Part shown: piece after piece, positions 9,276 through 36,520 of the stretch
Layout of the letters: each line of letters starts with the position of its first letter
Position numbering within the stretch: position 1 is the first letter of the stretch
Origin: Candidatus Nanohaloarchaea archaeon
GTDB taxonomy: Archaea; Nanohalarchaeota; Nanosalinia; Nanosalinales; Nanosalinaceae
Reading direction: 5' to 3'
Assembly: GCA_047617745.1 (NCBI GenBank)
Contig: JBLGBN010000003.1
Span: 1-59,353 of the forward strand
DNA length: 59,353 nucleotides
Translations under genes and position numbers: made by a program
Notes under the pieces: generated by a model
Told to the model about the DNA's origin: nothing
The model's database searches: none
Seen by the model: only the letters and a program-made list of their open reading frames with translations

Positions 9276-9602
9276 ATGAGTATCTACGAAGATCTGAAAA
9301 ATCTGGAAGAAAAAATAACCGGTGAAGGTTATACGATTGACCGGTTCGAGGTACGTGAACGGGCAGATACCTACAGTGAGAGCGGAATAAACGGTAGAAC
9401 AGCGCAGAGGGCGGTCGGCAGGAACCCTCTAGAAGTGCTTGAGGACTGGAAAACCGTGGATAACCAGGACTACATAATCGAGGTATTTCTCACTGGCAGA
9501 AACCCGCTAGACAGGGTGCTTTACGATCCAGAGAAACAGGAAGCAGAGTACATCAGTTTCTCTAGCCAGGATCCCTCTCTAGAAGAGCTTCTGGAAGAAT
9601 GA
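9276..9602 (+). CDS. hypothetical protein
   Basis: 108-aa acidic ORF with ATGA overlap into the next gene. Confidence 0.65.
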   Translation: MSIYEDLKNLEEKITGEGYTIDRFEVRERADTYSESGINGRTAQRAVGRNPLEVLEDWKTVDNQDYIIEVFLTGRNPLDRVLYDPEKQEAEYISFSSQDPSLEELLEE

Positions 9603-10324
9603 GACTAATCTCACTAGCCCCTTCAAACACCGAAATCCTGTACAAAATTGATGCAGGAGATCAGATAGTTGCGACAACAGGCCTATGTGATTTTCCCAAG
9701 GAAGCCGCCGGCAAACCAGATGTAGGCGGGTGGGTAAATCCTGATATTGACGAGATAGAATCCTATAATCCTGACCTTGTCATCGCATCCGACGACCTGC
9801 AGGATAGAGCGGTGGAAAATCTAGAGGAGCGCGGCCTGAATGTCTTACAGGTGAAGCCTCACAGTTTAGGAGAGGTATTTGACAGTATAAGGCTGGTAGG
9901 TGAAACTGTCGGGAAAACCTCAGAGGCAGAGGACCTTATCAACAGGATGAAATCCGAGATTAAATCAGTTGATCTGAAGGGCGAGAGGATATACTGCGAG
10001 GAGTGGATGAACCCTCCAATGGTCTCCGGCAACTGGATCCCGGAACTGATAGAAGAGGGCGGCGGCGATTACTTCATTCAAGGCGGAAGAAGCAGGGATT
10101 TCAATACTGGCGACCTGAAAAAGTTCGATCCCGGATATATTTTCCTGAATGTCTGCGGGGCGGGAACCAGAGCGGAAACCGAAAAGGTAAGTGACCGGGA
10201 AAAATGGGAGAATATACAGGCAGTAGAAAAAGGGAATGTCTATGTCATTGACGACGCGCTTCTGAACCGGCCTGGACCCAGACTTACTGAGGGCCTGAAA
10301 CAGATTGAGAAGAGGATTTCCTAG
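9599..10324 (+). CDS. cobalamin/Fe-siderophore-binding protein (BtuF-like), no signal peptide
   Basis: RLISLAPSNTEIL, CDFP, PDLVIA and RPGPRL motifs. Confidence 0.85.
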   Translation: MRLISLAPSNTEILYKIDAGDQIVATTGLCDFPKEAAGKPDVGGWVNPDIDEIESYNPDLVIASDDLQDRAVENLEERGLNVLQVKPHSLGEVFDSIRLVGETVGKTSEAEDLINRMKSEIKSVDLKGERIYCEEWMNPPMVSGNWIPELIEEGGGDYFIQGGRSRDFNTGDLKKFDPGYIFLNVCGAGTRAETEKVSDREKWENIQAVEKGNVYVIDDALLNRPGPRLTEGLKQIEKRIS

Positions 10325-14422: not shown

Positions 14423-14494
14423 GCCCCGTTGGCTCAGCGGTAGAGCGCGTCCTTGGTAAGGACGAGATCCCGGGTTCAAATCTCGGACGGGGCT
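14423..14494 (+). tRNA. tRNA-Thr(GGT)
   Basis: Acceptor GCCCCGT/ACGGGGC; anticodon arm CGTCC-TTGGTAA-GGACG; T-loop TTCAAAT; no encoded CCA. Confidence 0.95.
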
Positions 14495-14575
14495 TCGCCT
14501 TTTCAAAAGAACTCTGTTCTGTTTGTTGTTATCTCAAAATAGGCCGTTATTAGTCTTGGCGTCGCTTTAATTATA

Positions 14576-14929
14576 ATGTCTACAGAAGATGTTTTAGAGA
14601 GAAATGAAGATTCTTTGGAGTCAAAGATAGATTATATTACAGCAAGTGCAGAGAGCTGGCAGGAAGTTTATGAAGAATGCTTGGAAGATCCTTTGGAGCA
14701 TGAAGAAGAGGAGTTGGAGGAATTGGTTGAAGGCTACGCTGTTTTAATAGGGCAGATCCATGTAACTTACAATATAATGGCAAGTACAGGAAAGCAGGAA
14801 TAAGCTGAGCTCATGCTTGATACTTTTGAAGATGTTTCACAGACACAGCACGAATATTCTACAGAAGGCAGAGAGTTAGTTGGAGATACGCCTCTTGATT
14901 TGTTCAAGGAGGAATATGGTTTTCAATAA
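14576..14929 (+). pseudogene. hypothetical protein interrupted by an in-frame TAA (14801-14803)
   Basis: The same frame continues as AELMLDTFEDVSQTQHEYSTEGRELVGDTPLDLFKEEYGFQ* with the same acidic composition. Confidence 0.55.
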
Positions 14930-15067
14930 AGATTTTACAAAATTAAACATCGAGTTTCTGCCCAATATTTCTCTAGCTGAGAATGTCAGTGAACAGGAAA
15001 TGAATATCGCAGTAATGAAATAGTTGATAGATGGGAGCGAAAAAACTCCTTACTGCCTCTACTTCAA

Positions 15068-15370
15068 TCAAATATATTCAGGGACAGAACTCTGATTTGC
15101 TCTATCGTAGGCCTCTTGATAGTTGTCTGGCCAGTTTGTTGGATCGATTATATACATTTCCTGGACGCTTGAGCCAAAATCTTCTAGTTTCTTTTTTCTG
15201 TCGCCGGGACTGCAGTGTGTTTCTACTTCGATCACTGTATCAGTGCTTGCGTCGTCAAGAGCCTTGCATATCATGGATTTGATGAATCCGTGTTTTACTC
15301 CGCCTTTGAACTTTACGGCTTTGACTTCTTTGTTGTGAAAATCAAAGTCTTTTTGTTTCATCCGGAACAT
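15068..15370 (-). CDS. hypothetical protein, possibly a PD-(D/E)XK-like fragment
   Basis: H..IK..IC..L and VIEVET segments; weak similarity only. Confidence 0.4.
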   Translation of the reverse strand: MFRMKQKDFDFHNKEVKAVKFKGGVKHGFIKSMICKALDDASTDTVIEVETHCSPGDRKKKLEDFGSSVQEMYIIDPTNWPDNYQEAYDRANQSSVPEYI

Positions 15371-15495
15371 GCATTTCCTGTAGTCTGTAGTTGTCTATGT
15401 GAAAGTCTCTACTTCTGAATGGATTCTGCGGGACATGAAAAATTTTTCAACTTGTAAAGATAAAAAGTGAGAGGCCTTCACATTTTTCCTTTATC

Positions 15496-15933
15496 TCAGA
15501 TGTATTCCTCTATGTCTTTATCTAGATTTCTTGGGTTAACTGTCTCAGGAAGTATTTCATTTATTTTCTGAAGTTCATTCTCTCCATTCCTGTCCATGAT
15601 TATCTCTGTGTTGTTTTCAGCTAGTTTAGCGAATTCTGCGATGAATTGGAGACAGTTTCCGCAGGGCCTGATGCTGTCAGATTTCTCTGCCGTCACATAT
15701 ACTGCTTTAAAGCTGTATTCTCCGTTGCTTACAGCGCTAGTGATGGCGTTCTGCTCTGCACATGTGCCATTTCCATTAACCATTCCGTCGACTACACAGC
15801 CACTGTAAATCTCGCCTGAAGAAGTGAGAACTGATGCTCCTACAGGAAAGCCATATACTGTAGTGTAGGAGTTTTCCATGGCTTTTTTCGCTGCTTTCTC
15901 CAGTTTTTTGACGTCCTTTTGATCTGTTTCCAT
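15496..15933 (-). CDS. cdd: cytidine deaminase family protein (homotetrameric type, divergent)
   Basis: FPVGASV, CAE and PCGNC zinc motifs. Confidence 0.85.
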   Translation of the reverse strand: METDQKDVKKLEKAAKKAMENSYTTVYGFPVGASVLTSSGEIYSGCVVDGMVNGNGTCAEQNAITSAVSNGEYSFKAVYVTAEKSDSIRPCGNCLQFIAEFAKLAENNTEIIMDRNGENELQKINEILPETVNPRNLDKDIEEYI

Positions 15934-15936
15934 TTT

Positions 15937-16896
15937 TTAATCTACCTTTACCACGTAAGAGGCCTCTTTTGGAACTTCGGACTTGAATTTCTCAAATTTT
16001 TCTTCTGCGTCTGGCTCTACATCCGTCAGTCTTTTGTTAAGACTTTTGATTTTTGGATCAACTATTCTGTGTTTCCGTGTGACTTTGAATCCATATTCTC
16101 CATTATCTTCTATAGTTAATCCGTTTCTGATTCCCTGGAGTTTCTCATTTAATTCCGAATCTTGAGATAGTTTGTCCATAACTTCCTGATCTGTCGTGAA
16201 AAGATCTTCTTCAGTGATAACTCCTTCATCAAGGCCTCTGGAGAGAATGTTTTTCATCAGCATCTTCGTTCCCTCGCTCTTTTTATCGAAGAAAACTTCC
16301 TTGTTCAATTTGAAAAATAGATTCATCACTTCTGACGCTTTTTCCTTGTCTTTGGCGACGATCAATCCGTCTTCAGTTGTAAGGCCTTCAAGCACTCTAT
16401 CGACTGTTTCCTGATCGATGAGGCCTGCCTTGTACAGATCTCTCAACGTGTAATCAAGCCTGTCCGCGCATATATCAGGCCTGTCTCTCTCAAGTATTCC
16501 GAAGTTCTCCTCATCGAAAATATATTCGGGATCGTATCCGTGTTCCTCTACTAATTCATCAAGCCCATATCTTTCAACGAATCTTTCGTGATGATCCTCG
16601 TGAAACGTTTGATCTCTTCTCTCAAAAACTTGATCTGCCAGATGACTGAAAGCTGTATGGCTTATATCGTGGACAAGGCCTGCTATAACTTCGTCTTCGT
16701 CCGCACCAAATTTTTTACACAGGATTGCAACGCCCAGACTGTGCTCGAATCGACTCGTATCCATCTCGGGTTTGACAAGAAAGTCGGCTCCGTTCTGATG
16801 TACTTTCTTAAGTCTCTGCATTCCGGGATTTTCTATAATTTTTTTCTCAAGTTCAGTGAACTGTACTTCGCCGTAAATCGGATCTTCGTATTTCAT
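15937..16896 (-). CDS. HD-domain phosphohydrolase (COG1078/SAMHD1-like dNTPase family)
   Basis: DPIYG, MQRLKKVHQ, SRFEHSLGV, HDISHTAFSH and DRLDYTLRD. Confidence 0.9.
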   Translation of the reverse strand: MKYEDPIYGEVQFTELEKKIIENPGMQRLKKVHQNGADFLVKPEMDTSRFEHSLGVAILCKKFGADEDEVIAGLVHDISHTAFSHLADQVFERRDQTFHEDHHERFVERYGLDELVEEHGYDPEYIFDEENFGILERDRPDICADRLDYTLRDLYKAGLIDQETVDRVLEGLTTEDGLIVAKDKEKASEVMNLFFKLNKEVFFDKKSEGTKMLMKNILSRGLDEGVITEEDLFTTDQEVMDKLSQDSELNEKLQGIRNGLTIEDNGEYGFKVTRKHRIVDPKIKSLNKRLTDVEPDAEEKFEKFKSEVPKEASYVVKVD

Positions 16897-16898
16897 TC

Positions 16899-17471
16899 CT
16901 ATTCAAATACCTCGTAAGCAAACTCTCTAACCTGTTCATAGGCCTCTTCAAGGCCTTCATCATTTTCTATCACTATGTAATCGATTCCATGCCTGTCGTA
17001 TATCTCGAAGTGATTATCCCTCACATCATCGTAAAACTCCAGTATCTCCTCGTCTCCTTCCTCAAAATGAGGGCTTCTCTCCCATATATCCTGTAAAGGC
17101 ATATTCAGGAAGACTGCATAAATATCCACATCACTGTGTTCGCTAAGAATTTCCAGATACTCACTCTGTTCATCTATCAGCGACTCATCAGCGTTCTCCA
17201 TACTGTGCGCCAGACAGCCAGGATGCCACGTTTCGATAACTGCGTGATCCATATCATCAGTCATTAATTCTCTATCTCTAGCTGCTTCATTGACGTGGAT
17301 AGCTTCCTGGAAAGCATGGCTTCCGGCCTTTCCCCAGTCCTCGCCATTTTCATCGATCAATTTCTGGGCGATCTCAGGGAAATAATTGAAGCCATCTCTT
17401 TCTTCAAGCGTCTCCCCGAGACTGGATTTCCCGGCAGTATGTACACCGTTCAAGGCGATTACTTTATCCAT
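16899..17471 (-). CDS. P-loop nucleoside/nucleotide kinase-like protein (AAA_28-like)
   Basis: VIALNGVHTAGKSS Walker A at the N-terminus; TGATG overlap with the upstream RNR gene. Confidence 0.7.
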   Translation of the reverse strand: MDKVIALNGVHTAGKSSLGETLEERDGFNYFPEIAQKLIDENGEDWGKAGSHAFQEAIHVNEAARDRELMTDDMDHAVIETWHPGCLAHSMENADESLIDEQSEYLEILSEHSDVDIYAVFLNMPLQDIWERSPHFEEGDEEILEFYDDVRDNHFEIYDRHGIDYIVIENDEGLEEAYEQVREFAYEVFE

Positions 17472-19237
17472 CAATCCTCATCCTTGAGATCCATCGGCTG
17501 ATCCTGATTTGAACCGTTCCTGTAAACAGTCATCCCGTTCAATCCGGCGTCGTAGGCCTTTAGATAGACGTCTTTAACTGCTTCAGGATCCACATCTTTA
17601 GGCAAGTTAATCGTCTTTGAAACGCTTTCATCGACGAATGCCTGGGCCTCCACAAGTACGTTGAAATGCTCTCTATGCCCGATCTCAATGGCTGTCCTGA
17701 ACACGTCTTTTATTTCCTGAGGAATATCCAGTTCCTGACAGCTACCGTTTTCCCTGACTTTTTCGATCACTTCTTCAGCATCCACATCTCTGTGTTTCTC
17801 CAGTGCTTCACGGAACTCATCGTTGACATCTCCGTACCTGTCTATAAGACTGAAAATCGGCTCAATCTGCTGACTTGTATCAAACGTCATAGCTGACCGA
17901 CCTGTCGGAGGTAAGATAACCGTTGTACTGTTCCTTAAACCATGTTTCTCGATCATCTTATCCAGGCCTCTCCAGTCGGCTTCCGTTATTTTCCTGCTCT
18001 TCTTGTCTCCAAACTTACCAGTCAGGAAATTCCGGCCTTCATCAGCGTACTTGGAGCTGCTCCACCCCTCAAAATTTCCTCTCTGACCTGAAAGTTCCAC
18101 AGAGTACTTCTTGCTGTGATAGTTGATGAAGGAAAGCGTGTCTTTCAATAACTGATTTCCTTCTTCGCTGTCGTATTCAAGTCCGTGCTTGGAGAGTAAC
18201 TTGCTGTAGCCACAGTAACCGATACCTATCTTCCTGCTCTTCCTCATGGCTTCGACTGACTCTTCATGACTGTAATGATTGAGACTGTACTCAAGCACGT
18301 CGTCAAGAAATCTCGTGATCAATTTAGAGGCCTCTTCCAGTGCATCCCAGTCAATACTTTCTCCATTACTGAATCCAGCGATGTTAATGGAAGCGAACTG
18401 GCATGTCTCTCCCTCTGCAAGCCCTACCTCTCCACATGGAGCGACTGAAACATAGTTCAACTCTTCGTTAAAAGGCCTCCTCCTGTTCATGTTGTCGAGG
18501 AAGATCAGCCCTGGATCAGCACAGTCCCAGGCACATTTCACTATAAGATCCATCAATCCGCCGGAATCAACTTCCTCCCCGTCCCTGAGTTCAAACTTCT
18601 CTTCGTTCCTGTAGGCCTCTATAAATTCATCGCTCATATTAACTGAAAGATTGAACTTCCAATCGATCTCCGGATTCTCGTGTTTCACTTTGATGAATTC
18701 CTTGATAGCGGGATTGTTTGCTTTCATTATCCCCATGTTGCCTACGGGCCTGTGCTGTTCATCTCTTTCAAGACCTGTTTTCGCTATCTCCTGCAGATCC
18801 ATCAACACACTCATAGGATTATCCGCTTTATCCAGTGCGAATCCTGTCCCCATTCCCTCTTCGTGATAGTTGTCGACTTTTTCTTTGATCTCGCTGTAAT
18901 CATTGTTCAAATCCACGGGAGGTACTGAACAGGCACTGAGAGGCCTCTCATCGAATCTTCCGGCGTTTGTCATTATCGGCGTGGAAGGTACTATCTTCCT
19001 CTGCATAAACAGTTCAAGCATCCTGTCTGCGAACTCCAATGCTTCCTCAGTTTCTGTGCCAAACTGTTTCTCAATGTCTACAACTACTGAAGCTACTCTC
19101 TCCAGCATCTCAGTCGGTGATTCGTCCTCTGCCAGTATGTCGCCGTCTCTCATGATTTTTTCTGCTTTTTTCGAGGGATTGAACTCCCCTGAAGCTGAAA
19201 CCCTGTCCTTCTGTGTCATTGTAGTTTGTTCTGTCAT
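17471..19237 (-). CDS. nrdJ: class II (adenosylcobalamin-dependent) ribonucleotide reductase homolog, divergent
   Basis: PSTPIMTNAG, LSAC, FNLSV, DPGLIFLD, PCGE, PTG, SKTINLP and GMTVYRNGS. ATG at 19237 follows an AGGTGG SD. No beta-subunit gene nearby. Confidence 0.85.
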   Translation of the reverse strand: MTEQTTMTQKDRVSASGEFNPSKKAEKIMRDGDILAEDESPTEMLERVASVVVDIEKQFGTETEEALEFADRMLELFMQRKIVPSTPIMTNAGRFDERPLSACSVPPVDLNNDYSEIKEKVDNYHEEGMGTGFALDKADNPMSVLMDLQEIAKTGLERDEQHRPVGNMGIMKANNPAIKEFIKVKHENPEIDWKFNLSVNMSDEFIEAYRNEEKFELRDGEEVDSGGLMDLIVKCAWDCADPGLIFLDNMNRRRPFNEELNYVSVAPCGEVGLAEGETCQFASINIAGFSNGESIDWDALEEASKLITRFLDDVLEYSLNHYSHEESVEAMRKSRKIGIGYCGYSKLLSKHGLEYDSEEGNQLLKDTLSFINYHSKKYSVELSGQRGNFEGWSSSKYADEGRNFLTGKFGDKKSRKITEADWRGLDKMIEKHGLRNSTTVILPPTGRSAMTFDTSQQIEPIFSLIDRYGDVNDEFREALEKHRDVDAEEVIEKVRENGSCQELDIPQEIKDVFRTAIEIGHREHFNVLVEAQAFVDESVSKTINLPKDVDPEAVKDVYLKAYDAGLNGMTVYRNGSNQDQPMDLKDED

Positions 19238-19253
19238 GATTAAATCCACCTAG

Positions 19254-19601
19254 CTAGAAACGCGTAGAAGTCACCCTTTCCGTGTTCCCGCAGTCCGCGC
19301 ATTCGTACATCAGGAAATTGTCTTCATCTCCTCTCGCTGCAGGGAACTCGTGCTGTATCGCTCTGTCGTGTTCGCAGTCACTGAATTCGTAATCTTTCAG
19401 AGCATCTTCATCGTATCTTTCAAATATCTCTGTAATCCCTTCCTCTTCCTGGTCTGATTCAAGCGTCCATTCAATTCCGAGCTCTACATCAGCGAACTCA
19501 TCACAGTCCTCGCAGTACCCTATAGAGGCCTCTCGCCCGTCTTCTGTCTCGACGGTTTCTCTTTCAAGTAAGGCTCCACAGTCTTCATGGAAAAGACTCA
19601 A
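19254..19601 (-). CDS. TFS/RPB9-like double zinc-ribbon protein
   Basis: N-terminal HxxC..CxxC ribbon; C-terminal C.H...ARGDED..MYECADCG, matching the TFS RSADE...CxxCG pattern. TTG start overlaps the kinase stop. Confidence 0.7.
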   Translation of the reverse strand: MSLFHEDCGALLERETVETEDGREASIGYCEDCDEFADVELGIEWTLESDQEEEGITEIFERYDEDALKDYEFSDCEHDRAIQHEFPAARGDEDNFLMYECADCGNTERVTSTRF

Positions 19602-20179
19602 ATCAGATCAGCCTCCATCATAATATTCTCTACGACGTTTTCCACGCCATTAATAGCCTCTATCCTGGTCATATCGTATCTTTCTACTGCTTCTTCGTAC
19701 TCCTTTTCTGCCTTTTGCGGTCCTAAAACATCTGCATCTTTCCCGTCTGATCCAGTCTCAACCCTCCCTGATTTTCTCTCAACTCTAGTCTGCCGGTCCG
19801 TCCATAGATAGAACATATGATCCGGCTCAATAAGATCAAACTCTTCTACTGCCTCGTACCATCGCCCCGAATCTTTTTCGTCCAGTTCGTTGTAAACTAC
19901 AGTAGTTGGATAGTAGCGATCCAGTACGACATCTCCGCCTTCGGAGAGATGAGCTTCCACCTGATCGCTGACAGCCGAGTTAGAGGCCATGTACATCAGG
20001 AACTGTGTCTGATTGCTGTGTTTAGGCCTGTCAACGTATTCCCTGATCTCTGAAATCCCGGGTCCTGGACTCTCCATGAATACTGCGTCGATTTCTTCCG
20101 CGAAGGCCTCTGCCACGCTTGATTTTCCGACTCCGTCAAGGCCTTCGAATACGAAAAAGTTTCCAGAATCCTGACTCAT
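19598..20179 (-). CDS. tmk: thymidylate kinase family, CMPK2-like
   Basis: FEGLDGVGKS P-loop and VVLDRY motif. Confidence 0.85.
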   Translation of the reverse strand: MSQDSGNFFVFEGLDGVGKSSVAEAFAEEIDAVFMESPGPGISEIREYVDRPKHSNQTQFLMYMASNSAVSDQVEAHLSEGGDVVLDRYYPTTVVYNELDEKDSGRWYEAVEEFDLIEPDHMFYLWTDRQTRVERKSGRVETGSDGKDADVLGPQKAEKEYEEAVERYDMTRIEAINGVENVVENIMMEADLI

Positions 20180-20230
20180 ATCAAGTCAACTTGACTTGAG
20201 CTTTATATATTTAAGTCAAGCCGGATTGAC
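20180..20230 (-). promoter_or_regulatory. promoter of the kinase-RNR operon with three TCAA-N6-TTGA operator sites
   Basis: TATA box at 20202-20209. Sites at 20181-20194, 20186-20199 and 20216-20229. The first two form the perfect palindrome TCAAGTCAA-C-TTGACTTGA. Confidence 0.7.
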
Positions 20231-20257
20231 CAAACTTCTTTGAGAAACATCTGTAAA

Positions 20258-20947
20258 CTACTCAAAATTAAGTGATTCGAGCCCGAACTCTCCTTCTTCA
20301 TTCTCTGATATGCTCCATTCTCCGAAGAACCTGGAGTCGTTGTCTCTGGCTTTCCTTATTATATCTTCAAGTCCAGGGATGATATTGAGTTCATCTAGCT
20401 CTTCTATATCGTAGAAGTCATCACTTTCTTGTTTAGAGGCCTCTATTACAGTGAAGAAGGCCATGTAGTGCTGTGAAAATCCTTCTGAGAACTTGATATT
20501 GTTCCTCATAACGCCTCTGATCTCTGATTCTGGCGATTTCTCCCCGAACTCTTTCTCGAATGCTTCTTCAGCTGATCTCTTGTTTGATTCGTTTTTTTCA
20601 GTTCTTAAAACAGGGCCTCTGTAAGCACCTGGAAACGGATCAAGAGGATCTTCACGTTTCTTCAGGTAAACCTTGTCTTTGTCAAAGATGAAGACATGAT
20701 TGATTATAAGCGGCTGTCTGATCTGCTTGTGTTCAAGGTAGGCCAGATAATTCTTTCCCTCGGCTGTAGTTGAATATTTCTGCTCTTCCTTCACTATAAG
20801 TTCTTTATCTTGGAGTTTGTTCAGATGGAATGAAATTTTGTTACTGCTTTCGTTTCCCTGGAGCTCTGAGAATCTTAATTTATTTCTGTAGCCGAGTTTC
20901 TCAAGTATCGATCTCTGTATTTTATGCAGATCAATTTTTTCCATCAT
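20258..20947 (-). CDS. winged-HTH plus degenerate Nudix-domain transcriptional regulator
   Basis: LRFSELQ....NKISFHLNKL....LI.K....Y..T.EG ArsR/HxlR-like wHTH; Nudix-like KREDPLDPFPGAY...E......EEAFEKEFGE. Confidence 0.75.
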   Translation of the reverse strand: MMEKIDLHKIQRSILEKLGYRNKLRFSELQGNESSNKISFHLNKLQDKELIVKEEQKYSTTAEGKNYLAYLEHKQIRQPLIINHVFIFDKDKVYLKKREDPLDPFPGAYRGPVLRTEKNESNKRSAEEAFEKEFGEKSPESEIRGVMRNNIKFSEGFSQHYMAFFTVIEASKQESDDFYDIEELDELNIIPGLEDIIRKARDNDSRFFGEWSISENEEGEFGLESLNFE

Positions 20948-22218
20948 TAAACACCTTGATTATTATTTTGTAATGCATTAAAAAGAGCTTTACTGTTGAT
21001 TTTTGAATCCAGATCTTCAAATTTTTCAGCAAGTCTATCTGACGGTGCTTTCTCACTCTCTACTCTGTCAACAAGCAGATCCAGATACTCTCCATCCTTT
21101 ATATTGTTTAATTCAAGGCCTTTTCTCGCCTTCTCTATCTCATCCAGAAGAAGATGGGAGGCCTCTTTTTTAACTCCTTCAGGGCTGTAAAGCATGGAAT
21201 CAAATCCATCTCTCAGTGCATTTTCCCTGTTCTCATTCACTTTTTCAATATCAAGAAGTTCTTCACTGTGGTGCTGTGCATACAGTAAACGTCCTATACA
21301 GAAGGCATGGACTGCAACGTCTTCAATTATAGAGGGCTGAGTTGAAGCTATACGTGACTCCACAACTAGATCATCTCCAATAAACTTTATTCTTGAATCC
21401 TTCCAGAAACGCGACACACTATCAGAAATAAGTTTTTCCTCTCTCCCCAGGATAAACGGCCAGGAACCGACTCTATCCAGATAATCTTCCATATCCAAAT
21501 AATAAGTTTCCAGGCGTCCTATCTGCTTATCCTCGGTGTTGTGAGATTTACTCCAGAGTATCATTCTCAGATCTGAGAGACCTGTGTCTTTCCTTTCAAG
21601 AAAACGGGCATTTCCAGAAAGAGCTGAGATATAAGGGCTTATCATATAAACGTAGTTGGCTTTCTCAACTGCATCATCAAAATCAGAGGCCTCTAAGTTC
21701 GTATGGATGGCAGATATAAGGCTTACAGATTTAGAATCGCCTATATCCGCTTTACTTTTTTCTCCAATCAATTCGTTTCTTTCTACATTATAGTAATCGT
21801 TTATCTGTCTGAAGAACTTTTTACTGCTCAACTTCAACTTATCAAGAGGCCTGAAAACGTTTGTACCTGATCTTATTACTTCAAGATTGTTTTCATCGGC
21901 TCTGGCCTCAATTTTATTTTCCTCTGATTTAATAGAACTCCTTAAGTCTTCAAAAGAACCTAAATTAACTGGCTCTGTGGCTATTTCCACAGAATCTATT
22001 CCCAGTTCTTTTTTAGCTCTATCAAACTCTTTTATTGTATTGTCTCTTTTGTTTTCATCTTCAATAATAGTAATATCGTCGTTTAAGAGAAAGTACTCTG
22101 TCTCTACTCCTGCCCTGATTCTTTCCCTGTCTTTACTGAATCTATCTTCGTTATCCATTATTTCATCTGCCTTGTTCTCAAAAACAGATTTGATCAAATC
22201 ACTTTTTTCTGATCTCAC
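20947..22218 (-). CDS. glutamate-cysteine ligase family 2 (GCS2/YbdK-like carboxylate-amine ligase)
   Basis: AGVETEYFLL, KELGIDSVEIATEP, SAIHTNL, ALSGNA, WKDSRIK and VVESR. GTG start; TAATG overlap with the regulator. Confidence 0.75.
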   Translation of the reverse strand: MRSEKSDLIKSVFENKADEIMDNEDRFSKDRERIRAGVETEYFLLNDDITIIEDENKRDNTIKEFDRAKKELGIDSVEIATEPVNLGSFEDLRSSIKSEENKIEARADENNLEVIRSGTNVFRPLDKLKLSSKKFFRQINDYYNVERNELIGEKSKADIGDSKSVSLISAIHTNLEASDFDDAVEKANYVYMISPYISALSGNARFLERKDTGLSDLRMILWSKSHNTEDKQIGRLETYYLDMEDYLDRVGSWPFILGREEKLISDSVSRFWKDSRIKFIGDDLVVESRIASTQPSIIEDVAVHAFCIGRLLYAQHHSEELLDIEKVNENRENALRDGFDSMLYSPEGVKKEASHLLLDEIEKARKGLELNNIKDGEYLDLLVDRVESEKAPSDRLAEKFEDLDSKINSKALFNALQNNNQGV

Positions 22219-22224
22219 TTTTTA

Positions 22225-22248
22225 GTCAAGTCCTGTTGATATTTAAAA
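22225..22248 (-). promoter_or_regulatory. TCAA-N6-TTGA operator and TATA box of the GCS2-regulator operon
   Basis: GTCAA-gtcctg-TTGAT (22225-22240) lies between the TTTAAAT box and the start codon. Confidence 0.65.
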
Positions 22249-22467
22249 AGATGTCTGTATCTGGTTGAGGATTTTCTTCTGACTGTTCCAGTAGCTGCAT
22301 CATGCCTTAACGTGTTAAAGGATCTTGATGTAATAGAGGTCCGTACGCAGTCATCCTCTCCTGACAGATATATGCCTGAAACAGTTGACATGGAAAAATC
22401 GAGGAATAGGCAAGATATTGAGAGAAAACAAAGAAATACAGGAATTTAAATAAAAAGAAAAATAAGC

Positions 22468-23037
22468 TTGTCTGGGTTCATAATAATTTTAATCTTCATA
22501 AAAGTAACAGTTTTTTTACGAGCCACAAACATCACTAAGAAATGTTCAGAAAAAAAGTTCTTCATATCAACAGTACTCTCTATCCCCGTACTTTACTTCT
22601 CAACCTTTGTTTCAGGCCTGTTAAAATACAGTCCGATACAGTTCACAGGCAGTAACTTTATCGTGCCTGTATTTTCCGTTGTAATTTTTATCTACGGAGG
22701 ACTGCCGTTCCTGAAGATGGCGAAAGGAGAACTCGAAGACAAGAAGCCGGGAATGATGGCTCTGATTTCACTCGCAATTATAGTGGCTTTCACATACAGT
22801 ATAGCCTTGCTCTTTATTCCAGAGACCTCTTCACTTTTCTGGGAGCTCGTTACTTTAATTGATATAATGCTTCTCGGCCACTGGATCGAGATGAGAAGCG
22901 TGAGACAGGCCTCGTCCGCACTTGATGAATTAAAGGAGTTAGTGCCAAATACAGCGGAAAAGATAATCGAAGGCGATGCTGAATCTCGGGGAGAATCAGG
23001 CAGGGAGAGAACAACGAGGGAATTGCAGAGATTATAG
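22468..23037 (+). pseudogene. truncated heavy-metal P1B-type ATPase (CopB-like N-terminal TM region)
   Basis: YGGLPFL, KPGMMALISLAI and FWELVTLIDIMLLGHWIEMRSV; ends before the actuator/P domains. Confidence 0.8.
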
Positions 23038-23288
23038 GATTAGTTTTCCTCTAACCTTCTTAATTATTTTCTTAAGAATTGTCTACCTAAGAAGACATTA
23101 GACCTTTCGGAGTTCACCATTTCAAATGTGAGATTTGGAACTCAGCATTCCAAGCTCAGAAAGGGGCTTTCATTAGTTTTGTTCAAATTTTCCTGCTTAA
23201 ATGAATCTTCCTTCTTTGCTTGGTTTTTTATCTCAGCCACTTCAACATTTAAGTTTTAATCAAGAAGTAACAAACAGGTGAAGATAAA

Positions 23289-23966
23289 ATGGAATACAGT
23301 TTGAACTTAGATGGGGGAGCTCTTGAAGATGCAAACGAGAAGATGTTAAATGGTGAAATACCAGAACCGAGTGAAATGCCGAGTAGAGAGAACCCTGAGG
23401 AATATAGTACTCATATTTACAAGACGACGTTTGAGGACGCAGGTATGGAAAGAGAACCATTCAGGAGAGTGTTCGAAGAGTTCGATCAGAGAGAAGAGTT
23501 TAGTTTTGATGGAGAAAATCCTGTGGAAGCTCTAAATAACGAAGTTGAACGCAGAGATGAACATCCGACAGACTGGCAATCTTATAATTCTGGAGATGAA
23601 GTATTTATCGCGACAGAAATGCCCGGAGTAAATGGGAATCTCTGGAGCGAGTACGGCCCGCTTTCTGCTTTAGACGACGCGGCAGTATTTTCTGCTCCTG
23701 CCTCGATATATGTTGATGTAGGGGGAGAAAAAGTAGTTAATTCGATAGCGAGTATCACGGAACAGACTGGTGCACCATATCTTGAATCTAATCCGGAAGC
23801 GGTCCAATATGAAGAGGGAGGTGATATCTTCACAGGATGGTTCACGGTTCCACCTACTTATACGGAAGAAAAACTTGAAGAGAGCGTAGACGCCTGGGTG
23901 GACCGAGTTAGCCAAGTCAGCGAACTTCAAGAAGACTTGATAGAAGTTATGGATAGGCATCCATAA
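23289..23966 (+). CDS. hypothetical protein
   Basis: 225-aa acidic ORF, AGGTGA SD. Confidence 0.75.
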   Translation: MEYSLNLDGGALEDANEKMLNGEIPEPSEMPSRENPEEYSTHIYKTTFEDAGMEREPFRRVFEEFDQREEFSFDGENPVEALNNEVERRDEHPTDWQSYNSGDEVFIATEMPGVNGNLWSEYGPLSALDDAAVFSAPASIYVDVGGEKVVNSIASITEQTGAPYLESNPEAVQYEEGGDIFTGWFTVPPTYTEEKLEESVDAWVDRVSQVSELQEDLIEVMDRHP

Positions 23967-24038
23967 CATCCTCTTTCTTTTAATCTCCTAAATCAATGCA
24001 GCAAAACTATTTAATCGTTACTAGTAGGTAACATCTTT

Positions 24039-24590
24039 ATGTCCGAAGAGGTTACTGTTGATGAGGCTTTAGATGCCCTAGTTGAAGATGGAGAAAAAAT
24101 AGTCACAGAAGAAGATCAGAGTCTTCCACGACTAAAATTTGCATTTCAGAATTATGAGGACCTCCCTCGATACAAAGCACTGTTTTCAGGTGAAAGAAAA
24201 AAGAGATATGAGAAATGGAAAGTTGATGAAGCTTTAACTGACCTTCGAAGCGCAGTTGGTTCTTGGGCTGAAGAAAATGGCTATGAACTACGTGATGGTT
24301 TAACCGAGGTTTTCGATGAACCTATTGATGAACAATTAATTGCTAACCTCGAAGGTGAAATAAATACCGAAGAAGAAAACATAGAGTTTGGTTTTTACGG
24401 AGGCCAGAAAATAATAACACTATCCACCAACCCTTCAACCCACACAGATAATCCTGGAATGGCAATAACAGCTCACTACGATAATTTTAACGGAAACATG
24501 ACAGAAGAATACAGAGAACTTAACGCGATAACTGAAGCTGTCCTGTCTAAATATGGGCGAATAGTGAAAAGTGAACCCGACTGTCTGTGA
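24039..24590 (+). CDS. hypothetical protein
   Basis: 183-aa acidic ORF. Confidence 0.7.
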   Translation: MSEEVTVDEALDALVEDGEKIVTEEDQSLPRLKFAFQNYEDLPRYKALFSGERKKRYEKWKVDEALTDLRSAVGSWAEENGYELRDGLTEVFDEPIDEQLIANLEGEINTEEENIEFGFYGGQKIITLSTNPSTHTDNPGMAITAHYDNFNGNMTEEYRELNAITEAVLSKYGRIVKSEPDCL

Positions 24591-24643
24591 ATGCCAATAA
24601 ATAACCGGCCCTGATTAAAAAGAGAGGATTCAAATCATAGTGT

Positions 24644-27600
24644 GTGGTAGTAAGGCTTCTAGGCGTAGAAACAGGTAAACTGATCAAGTACAGCGCACTG
24701 GCGTTAGTACTGATGATTTCAGTCAGTCTTTCCGCTGGGGCTAAACCTGTCTACGTAGGTCCTCATACAGTGGAACCTGAGATTAGTCCCCAGCCCTCTA
24801 TCTCAGGACTATCATTAAACTCTGCAGAAAGCCAGGAACAGAGACTAATTGTAAGTTTCGACAAAGTTCCGAACAAGACTGAGAGAGAAAGACTGGAGCA
24901 GGATAAAAACATAGAGTTTCTGAGCTACGCCTCAAACAAAGGGTGGATAGTTAAAGCCGAAAAAAGCAGCCTAAACAAGCTGGAGACGCTGGAAACAGTT
25001 CTGGTTGCGGATTACAGGCCTGAATACAAACTGGGGCAAGAAATGATGGAAAACGGCTTGATGAACAGGTCTCTTAACGGTGACGGAACTGCGAACCTGT
25101 CAGTTGAGTTCTTCGAAGACGTAACTAAGGGAAAACAGAGGCGCATAATTGAGAAGCACGGGAAAGTGGTTGAAGAGCCTGCTTTCGGCAACAGGTGGAA
25201 AATACGGACATCTTCAGATTCCTATATGGATTTAACCGAGGTTGGAGAGGTGAAGAGGATTGAAAACCGCAGAGCAGATATTCAGGCCTTAAACGACGTC
25301 AGCCGGGAGGTAATCTCGGCTAACCGGCTTCGCCAGAACCCCTTCAACCTGACCGGGAACGGCTTTACAGCTTCTATGTGGGACACCGGCTGGGCAGGTA
25401 ATCACACCGACCTCAGAAGCAAGACCACAATTGGAGATAGAGGTGCATGCGACAACTGTAAAGTGATGGAACACGCGACCCATGTCGCCGGTACAATGCT
25501 CGGAGCAGGCCATCTAAACCCGGATCTCAAAGGTGTCGCCCCTGAAGCAGACCTGATAAGCCATGAGTTCTACACAACCAATGCTTTCGCTGAAAACATG
25601 AACGAATCCATAAGACAGAACAACTCTATCCTCTCCCAGAACTCGTACGGAAAAAAGATTACTACAAGATCTGAAATGGGAGACTACGACCAGATCTCAG
25701 AGTTCTTCGACTACCTAGTCAGGGAAAACGCAAACGTCCCACGAACTACTGTAGTTTTTGCCGCTGGAAATGAGAGAACGCAGTGGAGCGTAGATTACAA
25801 TACGACCGCCAGTTTCGGTTCTACCGCGAAAAACACTATCACTGTTGGAGCAGTGGACGATAATTCTGACATGACTTCCTACTCTTCCTGGGGTCCTACA
25901 GATGACGGAAGGATTAAACCAGATGTGGTGGCGGATGGTGGTGGCTCAACCGGTTTGATCGAATCTACTATGCCAAATGGAACATCGGGCTACCCTTACG
26001 CCGGAAAGCCAGGAACTTCTATGGCCGCCCCGGCAGTCTCTGGAGCAGTAATACTGATAAATCAGCAGTTCAACAGGACACATGACCGTCTGCCGGAACC
26101 TGCGACAACCAAAGGATTGCTTATCCACACAGCAGAAGATCTACACAAGGAAGGGCCGGACTACCAGACCGGCTGGGGTCTTGTAAATGCAACCAGAGCA
26201 GTCAGATTTGTGAAAAATCTTGAAAACGACAGGATTAGAAGAAGTCACATAAGCTCTACAGGCGGGGAAAAATCCTACAGCTACGACCTGACAGAGGAAC
26301 GGGATATCAAGTTTACACTGGTATGGAGCGATTATCCAGCGAGCGCAGGGTCTGAAGATACTCTGGTCAACGATCTTGACCTCAACGTTACAGGTCCTAA
26401 CGGTGAGAGAAAGTACCCCTGGACCCTGGAAGGATACTCAAACCCTGACTCAGCAGCCTCTAAAGACAGTGAGGATCACACCAACAATGTAGAACAGGTA
26501 CATATCGAAAATGCAACACCTGGAACCTACCGGGTTGAGGTAGAAGGCAATGAAGTACCACACAACCAGACGTTTTCGCTCGTAGCAACCGATACTGTCC
26601 AGCCTCCGGAAGTAACGATCAGTGAGCCAGAGGGGGTGCTGAAAAAAGCCTGGCTGAACGTGTCCGCAGACAAAAACGTTACCGAGTGGAAATACCAGAT
26701 TAATGACGGCTCAAACACTACATTCACTCCGAACATAACCGTTAACAGCGTGGGAGGTGGAGACAATAATATAACTGTCTGGGCCAGAGGTGAGTTCGAC
26801 AACTGGGTCAGTGAAACCAGTCAGTTCAGACGGGATATCTATCCCCCACAGATCGATGATTTAACCCCTCAGAATAGCACATACCTGAGCGGAGAATTCC
26901 CTGTAAACATGTCTACTGTAGACGAGTTAACCAATGTAACAGACAGAAATTATGCTCTTGTCCAGGAGAACACTGAGCTTGAAACCGGGGAACCGAACAG
27001 CTCTGTAGATTCCAGCGCCTATCCGGACGGAAACTACACACTGGAACTGAATGCTACAGACTACTTCGGGAACACTAACGAAACCTTCCTAGAGGTGGCA
27101 TTCGACAACACACCGCCAGAAATCATGTTAGAAAGAGCCCAACTCAGGTATAAAGGAGGAAAAGAATTTATCAACGCCTCGGCGAGAGATTCTCGGAGCG
27201 GAGTTGAGAAAATTGATTACAGATGGCAGAAAAACGGGTCAAACCAGACAGCCTGGAGACCTGTTAACACAACATTTGATACAGAAAGTCTTCCAGAAGG
27301 CAAGTATAACCTGAGTTTCAGAGGAGTTGATACAGCCGGGAACATCAATAGCTCTGTGAAAACAGTCTCATATATAGACAACAGTAAGCCGGTATCAACC
27401 CGGAAACTTAACCTCACAGAGTCCAATTTATCAAAGGCGGTAACACGTGAGGAGAAAGTTGTCAACTTCACCGAAATAGGTCTCAACTGGAGCTCACCGG
27501 ACAGCAGTTTAACCGATAACCTGTCCGGAATTAGCCATCTCCAGATAGAGAAGAGGAACAGGGTTTTCAACCAATCAACCGGCGAATTCGAACCTGTATC

Positions 27601-29299: not shown

Positions 29300-29471
29300 A
29301 GAAATCAAGAGATACACAGGTATAGCCACGATAATACTGTTCTGGCTTCTAACCCCGCTTTACCTCCAGATCGAGCACGGTTACTCCGCAATCAAAGTTT
29401 CGTTCGCGATAACGGTTTTCTACTACATAGCTTTCAAGCTCTGGAAAAGACAGAACCCGGATTCAGAATAA
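29289..29471 (+). CDS. small 2-TM membrane protein
   Basis: MKNKEIKRYTGIATIILFWLL...; overlaps the protease stop. Confidence 0.55.
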   Translation: MKNKEIKRYTGIATIILFWLLTPLYLQIEHGYSAIKVSFAITVFYYIAFKLWKRQNPDSE

Positions 29472-29502
29472 CCATAAAAAGCTGCTTAAACCCTGATCTG
29501 TT

Positions 29503-35782: not shown

Positions 35783-36520
35783 ATGGCCTCCAAAAATGAA
35801 ATAGAAACCATAAAAAAGCTAGCAAATCAGGGAAAATCCGTTAACACAATTAAAAATAAATTAGAATTGCCTAAATCAACAGTTTACTATCATTTCAGAA
35901 AAGAAGTTGGACAAAAACAGAAAGAAAAACAAATCAGTATACCACAGGACCAAGATTTCAAAGGAGAACTCTGTGGACTATTCGCAGGAGATGGCGGATT
36001 CCAAAAAGACAAAAATGGAAGCTACCGGATAAGATTTTATCTAAACTACAACTACAGATACTGGACACTTCTAGCCAATTATCTAGAGAAAAGACTAAGC
36101 AAGCAACCTAATATATACAAAAATCCGAGATCCTCTAAAACAATTCTAAATTATTGCTCTAAGAAGCTATACAAATTCCTAAGATCAAATTTGTGGTGGG
36201 AAAAAGATAAGACTTCAAGTATTTGCTTAAAGCCGGAGAAAGATTTCAGCAGAAACTTCAAAACTGGTTTTCTAAGAGGTTTTATAGATACAGATGGTTA
36301 TAGAAGGCCCGATCACAAGCGTTATGTATTTACAAGCGCCAGCGATGATCTTATCAAAAATACAAGCAATATCTTGACTTCACTAGGCATACAAAACACC
36401 TCTTTTAATGAAGAAGATGAACGCGGCTATATGACCAAGCATAAGATACGTATAACAGGAGAGGATGTAGACAAATTCAATTCTAAGATAAAACCAAGAA
36501 ATCCTAAGAGAAGATACTAG
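35783..36520 (+). CDS. free-standing HTH plus double-motif LAGLIDADG endonuclease
   Basis: QGKSVNTIKNKLELPKSTVYYHF HTH; ELCGLFAGDG and GFLRGFIDTDG motifs; Lys-rich and AT-rich. Confidence 0.85.
   Translation: MASKNEIETIKKLANQGKSVNTIKNKLELPKSTVYYHFRKEVGQKQKEKQISIPQDQDFKGELCGLFAGDGGFQKDKNGSYRIRFYLNYNYRYWTLLANYLEKRLSKQPNIYKNPRSSKTILNYCSKKLYKFLRSNLWWEKDKTSSICLKPEKDFSRNFKTGFLRGFIDTDGYRRPDHKRYVFTSASDDLIKNTSNILTSLGIQNTSFNEEDERGYMTKHKIRITGEDVDKFNSKIKPRNPKRRY

Follow-up and report, generated by a model that had tools for sequence, protein, structure and literature searches.

A putative accessory deoxynucleotide module built around an asparagine-less class II ribonucleotide reductase paralog in a nanohaloarchaeal genomic island

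Phage T4-type deoxynucleotide (dNTP) gene sets combine a ribonucleotide reductase (RNR), a dNMP kinase, a dCTPase/dUTPase, a dCMP deaminase and a thymidylate synthase. The clusters for cordycepin (Cns1-3) and oxetanocin (OxsA/OxsB) join a nucleotide kinase or an HD phosphohydrolase to a sugar-modifying redox or B12 enzyme. Here, we compare with these a cassette found in a 59,353 nucleotide stretch of a Candidatus Nanohaloarchaea archaeon (JBLGBN010000003.1 in GCA_047617745.1), referred to in full as the window, which is contig C3 of a 34-contig, 834,247-base assembly with a completeness of 88.6% that encodes strongly acidic proteins. Six minus-strand open reading frames (ORFs; 15496-20179), spaced by 2-4 nt or overlapping by 4 nt, encode, in order of transcription, a TMPK-like kinase, a paralog of the transcript cleavage factor TFS, a short class II RNR paralog, a second P-loop nucleotide-kinase-like protein (KIN2), an HD hydrolase and a cytidine deaminase (CDA). 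We tentatively, and with rather less than even confidence, read this cassette as an auxiliary, repressor-controlled deoxynucleotide module that has spread horizontally and is not the main RNR operon.

Like the T4-type sets, the cassette brings together a reductase, (d)NMP kinases, an NTP pyrophosphatase/hydrolase and a deaminase, but it is cellular, includes a polymerase cleavage-factor paralog and a putative dedicated repressor, and the thymidylate synthase is encoded elsewhere, on contig C6. A TMPK-fold kinase beside a radical enzyme that acts on the nucleotide sugar also recalls prokaryotic viperins and their CMPK2-like kinases; however, there is no radical-SAM viperin here and the radical enzyme is an RNR homologue. 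The likeness found to the cordycepin and oxetanocin clusters is confined to the level of the HD and kinase superfamilies, and the redox enzyme in the cassette is an RNR homologue.

The class II RNRs are described in the literature as follows. Pro438, which precedes the thiyl cysteine, is diagnostic of class II, and N437, C439, E441 and C462 are essential, sequences without any one of them being discarded as non-RNR (PASV preprint, 10.1101/2021.01.20.427478). Over 97% of NrdJ proteins have an apical phosphate loop that is either PNSP (NDP reducers) or PAGR (NTP reducers), and organisms with two nrdJ genes tend toward differing phosphate specificities (PMC8365446), while a Cys-rich C-terminal domain is found in 70% of NrdJ (PMC5704485). 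The RNR paralog (588-592 aa; 17471-19249, minus strand) contains an all-alpha N-terminal domain (37 bits) and the barrel (PF02867, 274.9 bits), both over their cut-offs, and scores 381.7 on TIGR02504 (NrdJ_Z), just below the cut-off of 399.95. Database copies begin at residue 5 (ATG at 19237), two NCBI records from the same subfamily carry the name 'hypothetical protein', and the ESM Atlas returned generic B12-RNR clusters only. The dependence of the paralog on B12 is putative.

The closest structural relative by sequence is the dimeric class II NrdJ of Thermotoga maritima (1xje/1xjk; E ~1e-59 over residues 141-585). The two proteins share the barrel and all-alpha domains, and the thiyl cysteine, the class II proline, the glutamate and the redox cysteine pair can be aligned. 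A270-P271-C272-G-E274 of the paralog is aligned to N-P-C-G-E in T. maritima, where Asn320 is the equivalent of N437 in Escherichia coli, and C283 is aligned to C333 of the redox pair (C225 and C462 in E. coli). C107, found in the sequence LSACSVPP, corresponds to C225 by motif position, though the HMMER alignment is weak there. The paralog differs in having Ala for Asn in the NPCxE finger loop, CQF for CNL and x-S-T-P for PNSP, in an extra Cys within a GIGxCG motif, in the lack of a Cys tail or Cys-rich domain, in its placement in a separate long-branch clade and in its sub-cut-off NrdJ_Z score.

These features extend well beyond this protein. A word-indexed search in which 8000 candidates were scored returned 797 relatives, and the top 120 are almost all 540-630 aa long. 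Among the query and the 120 listed homologues, the position equivalent to Asn437 is occupied by Ala in 119 of 121, by Ser in one and by Asp in one, and never by Asn. The Asn-to-Ala change is a hallmark of the whole subfamily. The residues after the second redox Cys are QF in 113 of 121, in place of the NL of canonical enzymes, and this co-varying change from CNL to CQF may replace the lost Asn amide with that of Gln284. The extra Cys (Cys346 here) is present in 119 of 121. The apical loop is [PFML]-S-T-P, here PSTP, in 79 of the 88 sequences matched by a regular expression (33 of 121 were unmatched), and in 65 of the 68 sequences with a YR.GS end motif fewer than 20 residues follow that motif, none of them a Cys. 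An alignment of 45 subfamily sequences shows no variation at C107, A270, P271, C272, E274 and C283. Canonical nanohaloarchaeal NrdJ keep TNPC[GA]E...CNLG, and in a quick maximum-likelihood tree of 70 sequences, restricted to those of 520-700 aa, the subfamily members grouped in a single clade, and the branch between them and six canonical nanohaloarchaeal NrdJ was long and had full support. Neither an Asn-less NrdJ subfamily nor an RNR-Nudix/CYTH-Gre module was found described in the literature searched, which did not extend to subscription journals and supplements. The subfamily and its conserved gene association appear to have gone unremarked, and standard RNR filters would discard it.

A genome scan returned 168 relatives, and 80 of their loci were analysed. 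They are from Nanohaloarchaeota, Woesearchaeota, Micrarchaeota, many Patescibacteria/Saccharibacteria and Dependentiae, and also from actinomycetes with large genomes (Nocardia, Amycolatopsis, Actinomadura and Saccharothrix). The distribution is wide but sparse: of 201 genomes sampled in the class of genome G043, two have the subfamily. Among 45 carrier genomes examined, 39 proved to have a second RNR (5/5 in a first set, 24/40 by PF02867 and 10 of the remaining 16 by NrdD). The other six are metagenome-assembled genomes (MAGs) of 0.7-1.0 Mb and unknown completeness. Some genomes of only 0.7-1 Mb hold both a subfamily member and a canonical RNR, and cultivable carriers exist in Nocardia, Amycolatopsis and Saccharomonospora. 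The Nocardia clade is sister to Saccharibacteria sequences (L046, L048 and L063; SH-aLRT 97), a grouping that would fit gene exchange between epibionts and their actinomycete hosts, and Nocardia mexicana has two copies of the RNR paralog. A viral origin was considered and rejected, as two scans of 2.9 million viral contigs found no family member (a single-protein query returned none and an alignment query one locus with 26% identity). PHROGs gave generic RNR and TMPK matches only.

When the cassette was sought in this genome (G000) and 40 relatives, it was found in two of the 41, this one and G024, a genome of another genus. The full order kinase-TFS-RNR-kinase-HD-CDA is present in G024, split over contigs C63 and C21, and in all four metagenome contigs (L120-L123) that were recovered with the zinc-ribbon protein. 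In a further locus, L029, the order is GCS2-regulator-kinase-TFS-RNR-kinase-HD. An earlier note, made from this sequence alone, had described six abutting or overlapping minus-strand genes on a tRNA island and had made its interpretation depend on gene order being conserved elsewhere. All six genes are there (15496-15933, 15937-16896, 16899-17474, 17471-19249, 19254-19601 and 19598-20179), and L029, G024 and the four metagenome contigs are collinear with them. The cassette shares 86% DNA identity with that of G024, whereas adjacent genes share 67-68%, and in G024 it adjoins other genes than here. The cassette is known from two different genomic settings. Judged from these comparisons, the cassette is accessory and horizontally spread.

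The island was also borne out. A tRNA-Thr(GGT) gene identified with ARAGORN (14423-14494, plus strand) flanks a variable region (14495-29502) that lies between an EamA transporter gene with the tRNA and an M3 peptidase gene. The interval from EamA to the M3 peptidase is 15.1 kb here, 1.7 kb in G002, a closed genome of the same genus, and 6.1 kb in G001. The GC content is 0.397-0.419 at 14-16 and 20-24 kb and 0.43-0.49 in the rest of the window. L029, L120 and L121 have the same tRNA gene next to the cassette; L122 and L123 do not. A classical integrative element was considered and rejected: Pfam found no integrase in 56 of the 71 window ORFs (those up to 48.6 kb), and no att-like repeat of a tRNA-Thr fragment is present elsewhere within the window.

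The promoter of the six-gene operon (20180-20213, minus strand) consists of a TATA-like AAATATATAAAG (approximately 20201-20213) and a palindromic operator, AGTCAAGTTGACTTGAT (20180-20196), that abuts the ATG of the kinase gene. A second copy of the operator (22224-22240) lies with a TATA-like TTTTTAAAT in the promoter (22224-22248, minus strand) of an adjacent two-gene operon for a GCS2-type ligase and a putative regulator. Allowing one mismatch, AGTCAAGT-N4-TTGAT occurs only at these two sites in the window (0.10 expected; none of 100 shuffles gave two), and the rest of the assembly has none. As the pattern was derived from its two sites, independent support comes from its conservation in L029 and L030, where the operator by the kinase start codon is identical while the surrounding spacer has diverged. 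In L029, a matching ATCAAGTGGAATTGACT is found at both promoters. A 58 aa ORF (22215-22391) overlaps the start of the GCS2 gene and spans its TATA box and operator. Conservation of this ORF in L120 is 64% over 39 aa, but it may have a regulatory role and not be a true gene.

The obvious candidate for a repressor of both operators is the 229 aa product of the gene at 20258-20947 (minus strand), which has a weak N-terminal winged helix-turn-helix (wHTH) signal (HTH_45, 21.8 bits; DUF7347, 22.9 bits; both sub-cut-off) and is syntenic in L029, L030, L120, L122 and L123. The C-terminal half of the protein could represent a Nudix fold that has degenerated: hhalign aligned it to the Nudix proteins encoded near other members of the RNR-paralog subfamily with a probability of 40% (E 3e-4, 125 columns), and Pfam found no Nudix match in it. 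An AF2 model made from a three-sequence alignment had a pLDDT of 41 and was unusable. In NrtR-like regulators, the order of the domains is the opposite of the wHTH-then-Nudix arrangement proposed here. The gene overlaps by one base that of the GCS2/YbdK-family carboxylate-amine ligase (20947-22218, minus strand; PF04107, 32.7 bits; NF010039, 46.6 bits, far sub-cut-off), which is syntenic in L029 and L120 only. The GCS2 ligase and the shared operator had been proposed together with an HTH-Nudix protein; the ligase and the operator stand, the wHTH is a sub-cut-off match, and the Nudix half was not confirmed.

The first gene of the operon encodes the TMPK-like kinase (19598-20179, minus strand), with the P-loop GLDGVGKS, a DRY motif and scores of 70.2 bits on PF02223 and 75.7 on TIGR00041, below the cut-off of 83.25. 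Genome-wide, PF02223 gave 142.8 bits for a canonical tmk on contig C6 and 69.9 for the cassette kinase. The PADLOC models PDC-M51B and VakA gave 108.9 and 68.7 bits; we take VakA to be the viperin-associated kinase, a name for which a literature search gave no confirming paper. KIN2 (16899-17474, minus strand) has the P-loop GVHTAGKS and matches AAA_28 (32.4 bits) and, in PHROGs, phrog_761 'thymidylate kinase' (E 1.5e-9). No PADLOC model matched the RNR paralog, the HD protein, the CDA or the TFS paralog, and no viperin or radical-SAM model in Pfam or PADLOC matched any of the eight cassette proteins.

The HD phosphohydrolase (15937-16896, minus strand) is of the SAMHD1/2HEK type, with the H...HD...D motif kept (PF01966, 32.7 bits). 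Its N-terminal 120-180 residues match PDB entry 2hek (E 6.7e-16) and chains of SAMHD1 (E ~1e-10), and orthologues are found 3' of the RNR paralog in L029, L031, L036 and L047. The region DPIYG...QRL...RFEHSLGV...HD aligns with SAMHD1 and the bacterial dNTPases, but the cassette protein is only 319 aa, the match is limited to its first 120-180 residues and PADLOC gave no dGTPase match. The CDA (15496-15933, minus strand) is of the small tetrameric type (PF00383, 53.2 bits) and passes the cut-off of a nucleoside cytidine deaminase equivalog (NF004064, 96.7 against 74). It is part of the cassette in G024 and L120-L123, and was not found adjoining the cassette in L029. Its zinc and catalytic motifs CAE and PCGNC are kept, and it has GCVVDG where human CDA has GCNIEN, a stretch that is likewise variable in related nanohaloarchaeal CDAs. 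A loss of sugar-contacting residues in both the RNR and the deaminase had been claimed: the altered residues are as described (SVAPCGE in the RNR paralog against STNPCGE in T. maritima, and GCVVDG in the CDA), and these are positions of ribose contact.

The second gene encodes the 115 aa TFS paralog (19254-19601, minus strand), which has two zinc ribbons and an acidic D92-E93 pair. A library scan of the cassette proteins found no Pfam match for it at E<0.01. However, when PF01096 was run genome-wide the paralog was the second-best match (16.4 bits, E 0.009, cut-off 21), and it aligned full length with the genome's own TFS (residues 4-109 against 3-113; BLASTP E 4e-5). These two results uphold the earlier description of a TFS-like zinc ribbon. 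In both ribbons the zinc ligands are CCCH rather than CCCC, and D92-E93 is invariant in five sequences and aligned to the SDE of the host TFS. Among nine remote relatives recovered from 1.84 billion representatives, seven carry PF01096 at E<0.01, four of them above the cut-off. As the RNR paralog has no C-terminal tail, the zinc ribbon was considered as a split-off Cys-rich RNR redox domain (NrdJb-like), and this was rejected as the main reading given the end-to-end TFS alignment, the acidic DE and the non-zinc-binding, GreA-like bacterial counterpart.

That counterpart occupies the analogous position in bacteria. The GreA-fold proteins score 31-83 bits on GreA models, for which 139-167 would be needed, have a distinctive GD.WHDN tip and reach no GreA, GreB or Rnk equivalog cut-off. 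Each of three Candidate Phyla Radiation (CPR) genomes that were checked has a higher-scoring housekeeping GreA elsewhere in addition to the GreA-like partner, and in two archaeal-titled genomes the sole PF01272 match is 2-3 kb from the RNR paralog. The 17 Gre-linked loci are scattered over many branches of the RNR tree with varied gene order, a count that is uncorrected for the non-independence of kin. Paralogs of secondary-channel factors that have taken on specialised roles include TFS4 in archaea and Gfh1 and Rnk in bacteria, and Rnk was historically tied to nucleotide kinase levels. The TFS paralog and the Gre-like partners are likewise extra copies of the TFS/Gre fold, and the Gre-like partners weakly match Rnk models (20-40 bits), but they differ in keeping the acidic tip and in being embedded in a nucleotide-enzyme operon. 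Together with the repeated linkage to kinases and NTP hydrolases, this association with cleavage-factor paralogs, seen independently in the two domains, suggests a hitherto undescribed tie of nucleotide-pool chemistry to transcription proofreading, both in CPR and DPANN symbionts and among actinomycetes.

Partner profiles were built from clusters of neighbouring genes, named via Pfam and NCBIfam scans, and counted within four genes of the RNR paralog at 74 loci. Nudix proteins were the most frequent (30/74), followed by CYTH (21), GreA-like (17), TMPK-like (13) and AAA_17/18 kinase (13) proteins, KIN2 homologues (7), a family designated 'U8' (6) and HD proteins (4). Several partners are fused, as RNR/CYTH (L068 and P0091), RNR/Nudix (L089 and P0055), kinase/RNR (L088), kinase/kinase (L034) or kinase/CYTH (L066). 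The AAA_17 kinases are similar to the kinase portion of NF041025, an anti-phage dCTP deaminase (51.2 bits, far sub-cut-off), one CYTH partner all but reaches the cut-off for class IV adenylate cyclases (57.9 against 57.95), and the Nudix partners are nearest to MutT-type sanitising enzymes, again far sub-cut-off. In actinomycetes (Nocardia L051-L064 and L087; Pseudonocardiales L093-L108), a Nudix gene follows the RNR paralog, which is often preceded by XRE-type regulators (HTH_31+DUF5753, DUF6879, HTH+TPR or an HTH-peptide deformylase fusion).

Pfam scans of 122 of 151 selected other immediate neighbours gave a heterogeneous set that is mostly housekeeping and includes several nucleotide-metabolism genes, for a ThyA-like/dCMP-deaminase fusion, uridine kinase, adenylate kinase, adenylosuccinate synthetase and HIT proteins. 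None of the 122 is a restriction-modification, CRISPR or abortive infection (Abi) gene, and no defence-island context of the kind that the earlier note had suggested looking for was seen. No conserved tailoring enzyme (aminotransferase, dehydratase or radical SAM) accompanies the subfamily in the partner and neighbour scans. Two unusual fusions were found near RNR paralogs, one of 735 aa in a Woesearchaeota MAG (L068:4380-6587) that joins MtrA-like, thymidylate-synthase-like, pterin-binding and dCMP-deaminase parts, and a thymidylate-synthase-like/methyltransferase fusion in a Peribacteria MAG (L066:90-1580).

In this 834-kb assembly, the RNR paralog is the sole PF02867 match and PF13597 (NrdD) has none. 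When the paralog was used to search G000 and 40 relatives, 36 of the 41 genomes were matched, and the matches other than those in G000 and G024 (contig C63) are canonical-type NrdJ with approximately 35% identity. The canonical NrdJ of the relatives are 925-1057 aa, longer with inteins, and G024 carries both types. In the closed genome G002, the canonical, intein-bearing nrdJ (a 1883 aa ORF) is flanked on one side by genes with matches in contig C34 and on the other by sequence matching the first 615 bases of C3. Positions 1-615 of the window open inside a gene whose G002 orthologue adjoins nrdJ, and the other side matches the 3.5-kb contig C34. It seems that about 10-14 kb, including nrdJ, is unassembled between C34 and C3. 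As the locus falls at this break, the canonical nrdJ of this genome is probably in the assembly gap, the cassette would be additional to the housekeeping pathway, and the RNR paralog is very probably not the housekeeping enzyme of the lineage. Canonical tmk and ThyA genes are both on contig C6. Of the separate canonical RNR and tmk that were to be looked for, the tmk is thus present, while the RNR is missing from the assembly and its syntenic position coincides with the gap. Logan contigs from four runs, with at least 80% likeness to the nrdJ region of G002, include many pieces of approximately 200-560 nt over the extein parts; they are not tied to this genome, but show that related canonical nrdJ genes are present, and fragmented, in those samples. 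Canonical NrdJ frames of 1334-1923 aa in G002 (L025:9658-15309), G004, G013, G030 and G033 indicate inteins, and joints that skip approximately 1400 nt at one intein site in contigs from public runs represent intein-free alleles in the same samples.

If the cassette is an auxiliary deoxynucleotide module, the wHTH repressor would leave its operator, possibly on binding of a nucleotide by its C-terminal domain. The two kinases would raise salvaged nucleotides, probably pyrimidines, to the di- or triphosphate, and the RNR paralog would remove the 2'-OH by the usual thiyl-radical route, with Gln284 perhaps standing in for Asn. The reductant might be a small thiol, conceivably gamma-glutamyl-cysteine made by the co-regulated GCS2 ligase, a step that is purely conjectural. 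The HD hydrolase and the deaminase could then trim or convert the pool, for example from dC to dU species for ThyA and the TMPK-like kinase. The TFS paralog would enter the secondary channel of RNA polymerase and help to excise misincorporated deoxy-type nucleotides while the pool is skewed. That the products are ordinary 2'-deoxynucleotides is the least certain step.

We rank a supply or salvage role first because the residues for reduction other than Asn are kept and Gln could replace the amide, and because the wider neighbourhoods are metabolic and a second nrdJ of other specificity is known (PMC8365446). Several observations weigh against it. Asn437, which the PASV preprint treats as essential (10.1101/2021.01.20.427478), is replaced, and for this reason ordinary reductase activity of the RNR paralog is only putative. 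NTP hydrolase partners are not obviously needed by a supply pathway, which also leaves the co-travelling divergent GreA paralogs and the TFS paralog unexplained; proofreading under a skewed dNTP/NTP ratio is an ad hoc explanation of them. A candidate-defence model of PADLOC (PDC-M51B) gives the TMPK-like kinase a higher score (108.9) than the Pfam TMPK model does (70.2), GCS2 is syntenic in just two other cassettes, and a patchy distribution and an island location would equally fit a conflict system. Nor would the role be an auxiliary one if the paralog were the organism's only RNR, replacing canonical nrdJ among ordinary housekeeping neighbours. The assembly, at 88.6% complete, does hold no other PF02867 match and no PF13597 match, and six of 45 other carriers show no second RNR. 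Against this, the G002 nrdJ maps exactly to the C34/C3 break, the relatives outside G000 and G024:C63 yield canonical-type matches and G024 has both types, and the six carriers are the small MAGs of unknown completeness, so we regard replacement as very unlikely.

The most serious competitor is a reading, itself unlikely on balance, that the RNR paralog makes a non-standard nucleotide, a deoxy-, keto- or sugar-altered chain terminator or signal. The kinases would provide the substrate or activate it, the hydrolases would keep the product in check or process it, and the TFS/Gre paralog would protect the cell's own RNA polymerase by removing the analogue from the 3' end of the RNA, while those of viruses or competitors are blocked. 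This would account for the hydrolases and the TFS/Gre paralogs better than supply does, and it fits Ala for the catalytic Asn in 119/121, the x-S-T-P loop where over 97% of NrdJ have PNSP or PAGR, and a canonical RNR in 39/45 carriers. It also fits the linkage of cleavage-factor paralogs in both domains with acidic tips kept (GD.WHDN; D92-E93), the position, in two archaeal-labelled genomes, of the sole PF01272 match at 2-3 kb from the RNR paralog, the likeness of the partner kinases to PDC-M51B, VakA and the NF041025 kinase domain (51.2 bits), and a module that is rare, patchy, island-borne and apparently tightly repressed. However, every reduction residue except Asn is kept and Gln284 may compensate, the RNR, HD, CDA and zinc-ribbon proteins have no PADLOC match, none of the 122 scanned neighbours is a restriction-modification, CRISPR or Abi gene and many are housekeeping or nucleotide metabolism genes, and a conserved tailoring enzyme was not seen in the neighbour scans. 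The earlier note had favoured such a nucleotide, possibly antiviral, or a nucleotide-pool defence. The conserved order, the coexistence with canonical RNRs, the Ala hallmark and the cleavage-factor linkage speak for it, and PADLOC, the neighbours, the viral contigs and the kept residues against; as there was no sign of a sugar-modified product or of antiviral action, the mundane dNTP-supply alternative is at least as likely. Were a non-standard nucleotide made, the cassette would be a cross-domain nucleotide-warfare module analogous to viperin, built on RNR chemistry and with TFS/Gre proteins as immunity factors. In the PASV preprint, Asn437 serves as a filter for 'bona fide' RNRs (10.1101/2021.01.20.427478), yet a deeply conserved cross-domain subfamily is without it. 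Either the Asn is dispensable, perhaps via the co-varying Gln, or the subfamily carries out new radical chemistry on nucleotides. Detoxification of, or resistance to, nucleoside analogues made by hosts or competitors is improbable. The hydrolases would destroy triphosphates, the deaminase inactivate cytidine analogues and TFS/Gre excise terminators, while the RNR paralog and kinases re-route salvaged material. By record titles, the carriers are mostly epibionts or symbionts (CPR, DPANN and Dependentiae) and antibiotic-producing actinomycetes, the Nocardia clade has Saccharibacteria sequences as its sister group, MutT-type sanitising enzymes are the nearest, though far sub-cut-off, match of the Nudix partners and the presumed sugar pocket of the CDA is altered; but a reductase, the invariant core of the module, would be unneeded, no conserved transporter or efflux partner was seen in the neighbour scans, and the scheme is conjecture throughout. 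Depletion of the nucleotide pool upon infection, with the HD protein and deaminase destroying dNTPs or dC nucleotides and the RNR paralog and kinases restoring or sensing the pool, is more improbable still. The HD protein is related to SAMHD1-type dNTP triphosphohydrolases, a deaminase is present, partner kinases at other loci are similar to the kinase domain of an anti-phage dCTP deaminase, and the operon is island-borne and apparently repressed. Yet HD and CDA are the least conserved components (HD at 4/74 loci, CDA in nanohaloarchaeal cassettes only), neither has a PADLOC match, the CDA is of the small nucleoside type and not a dCTP deaminase, and a maker and a destroyer of dNTPs under one promoter are hard to reconcile.

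Other genes were seen in the island and elsewhere in the window. An ORF of 189 aa (22468-23037) is probably a gene fragment, as it corresponds to the N-terminal part of copper-translocating P-type ATPases alone (TIGR01511 positions 2-86 of 542), and a gene for a 1551 aa S8 subtilase with Ig-like domains (24644-29299) takes up a large part of the island stretch that separates the cassette from the M3 peptidase gene. Outside the island, a free-standing LAGLIDADG_3 ORF of 245 aa adjoins a thioredoxin-reductase-like gene (35783-36520 and 36752-37681). A periplasmic-binding-protein gene of the Peripla_BP_2 type, a type used for B12 or siderophore uptake, is found at 9599-10324, 7 kb from the gene for the putatively B12-dependent RNR paralog.

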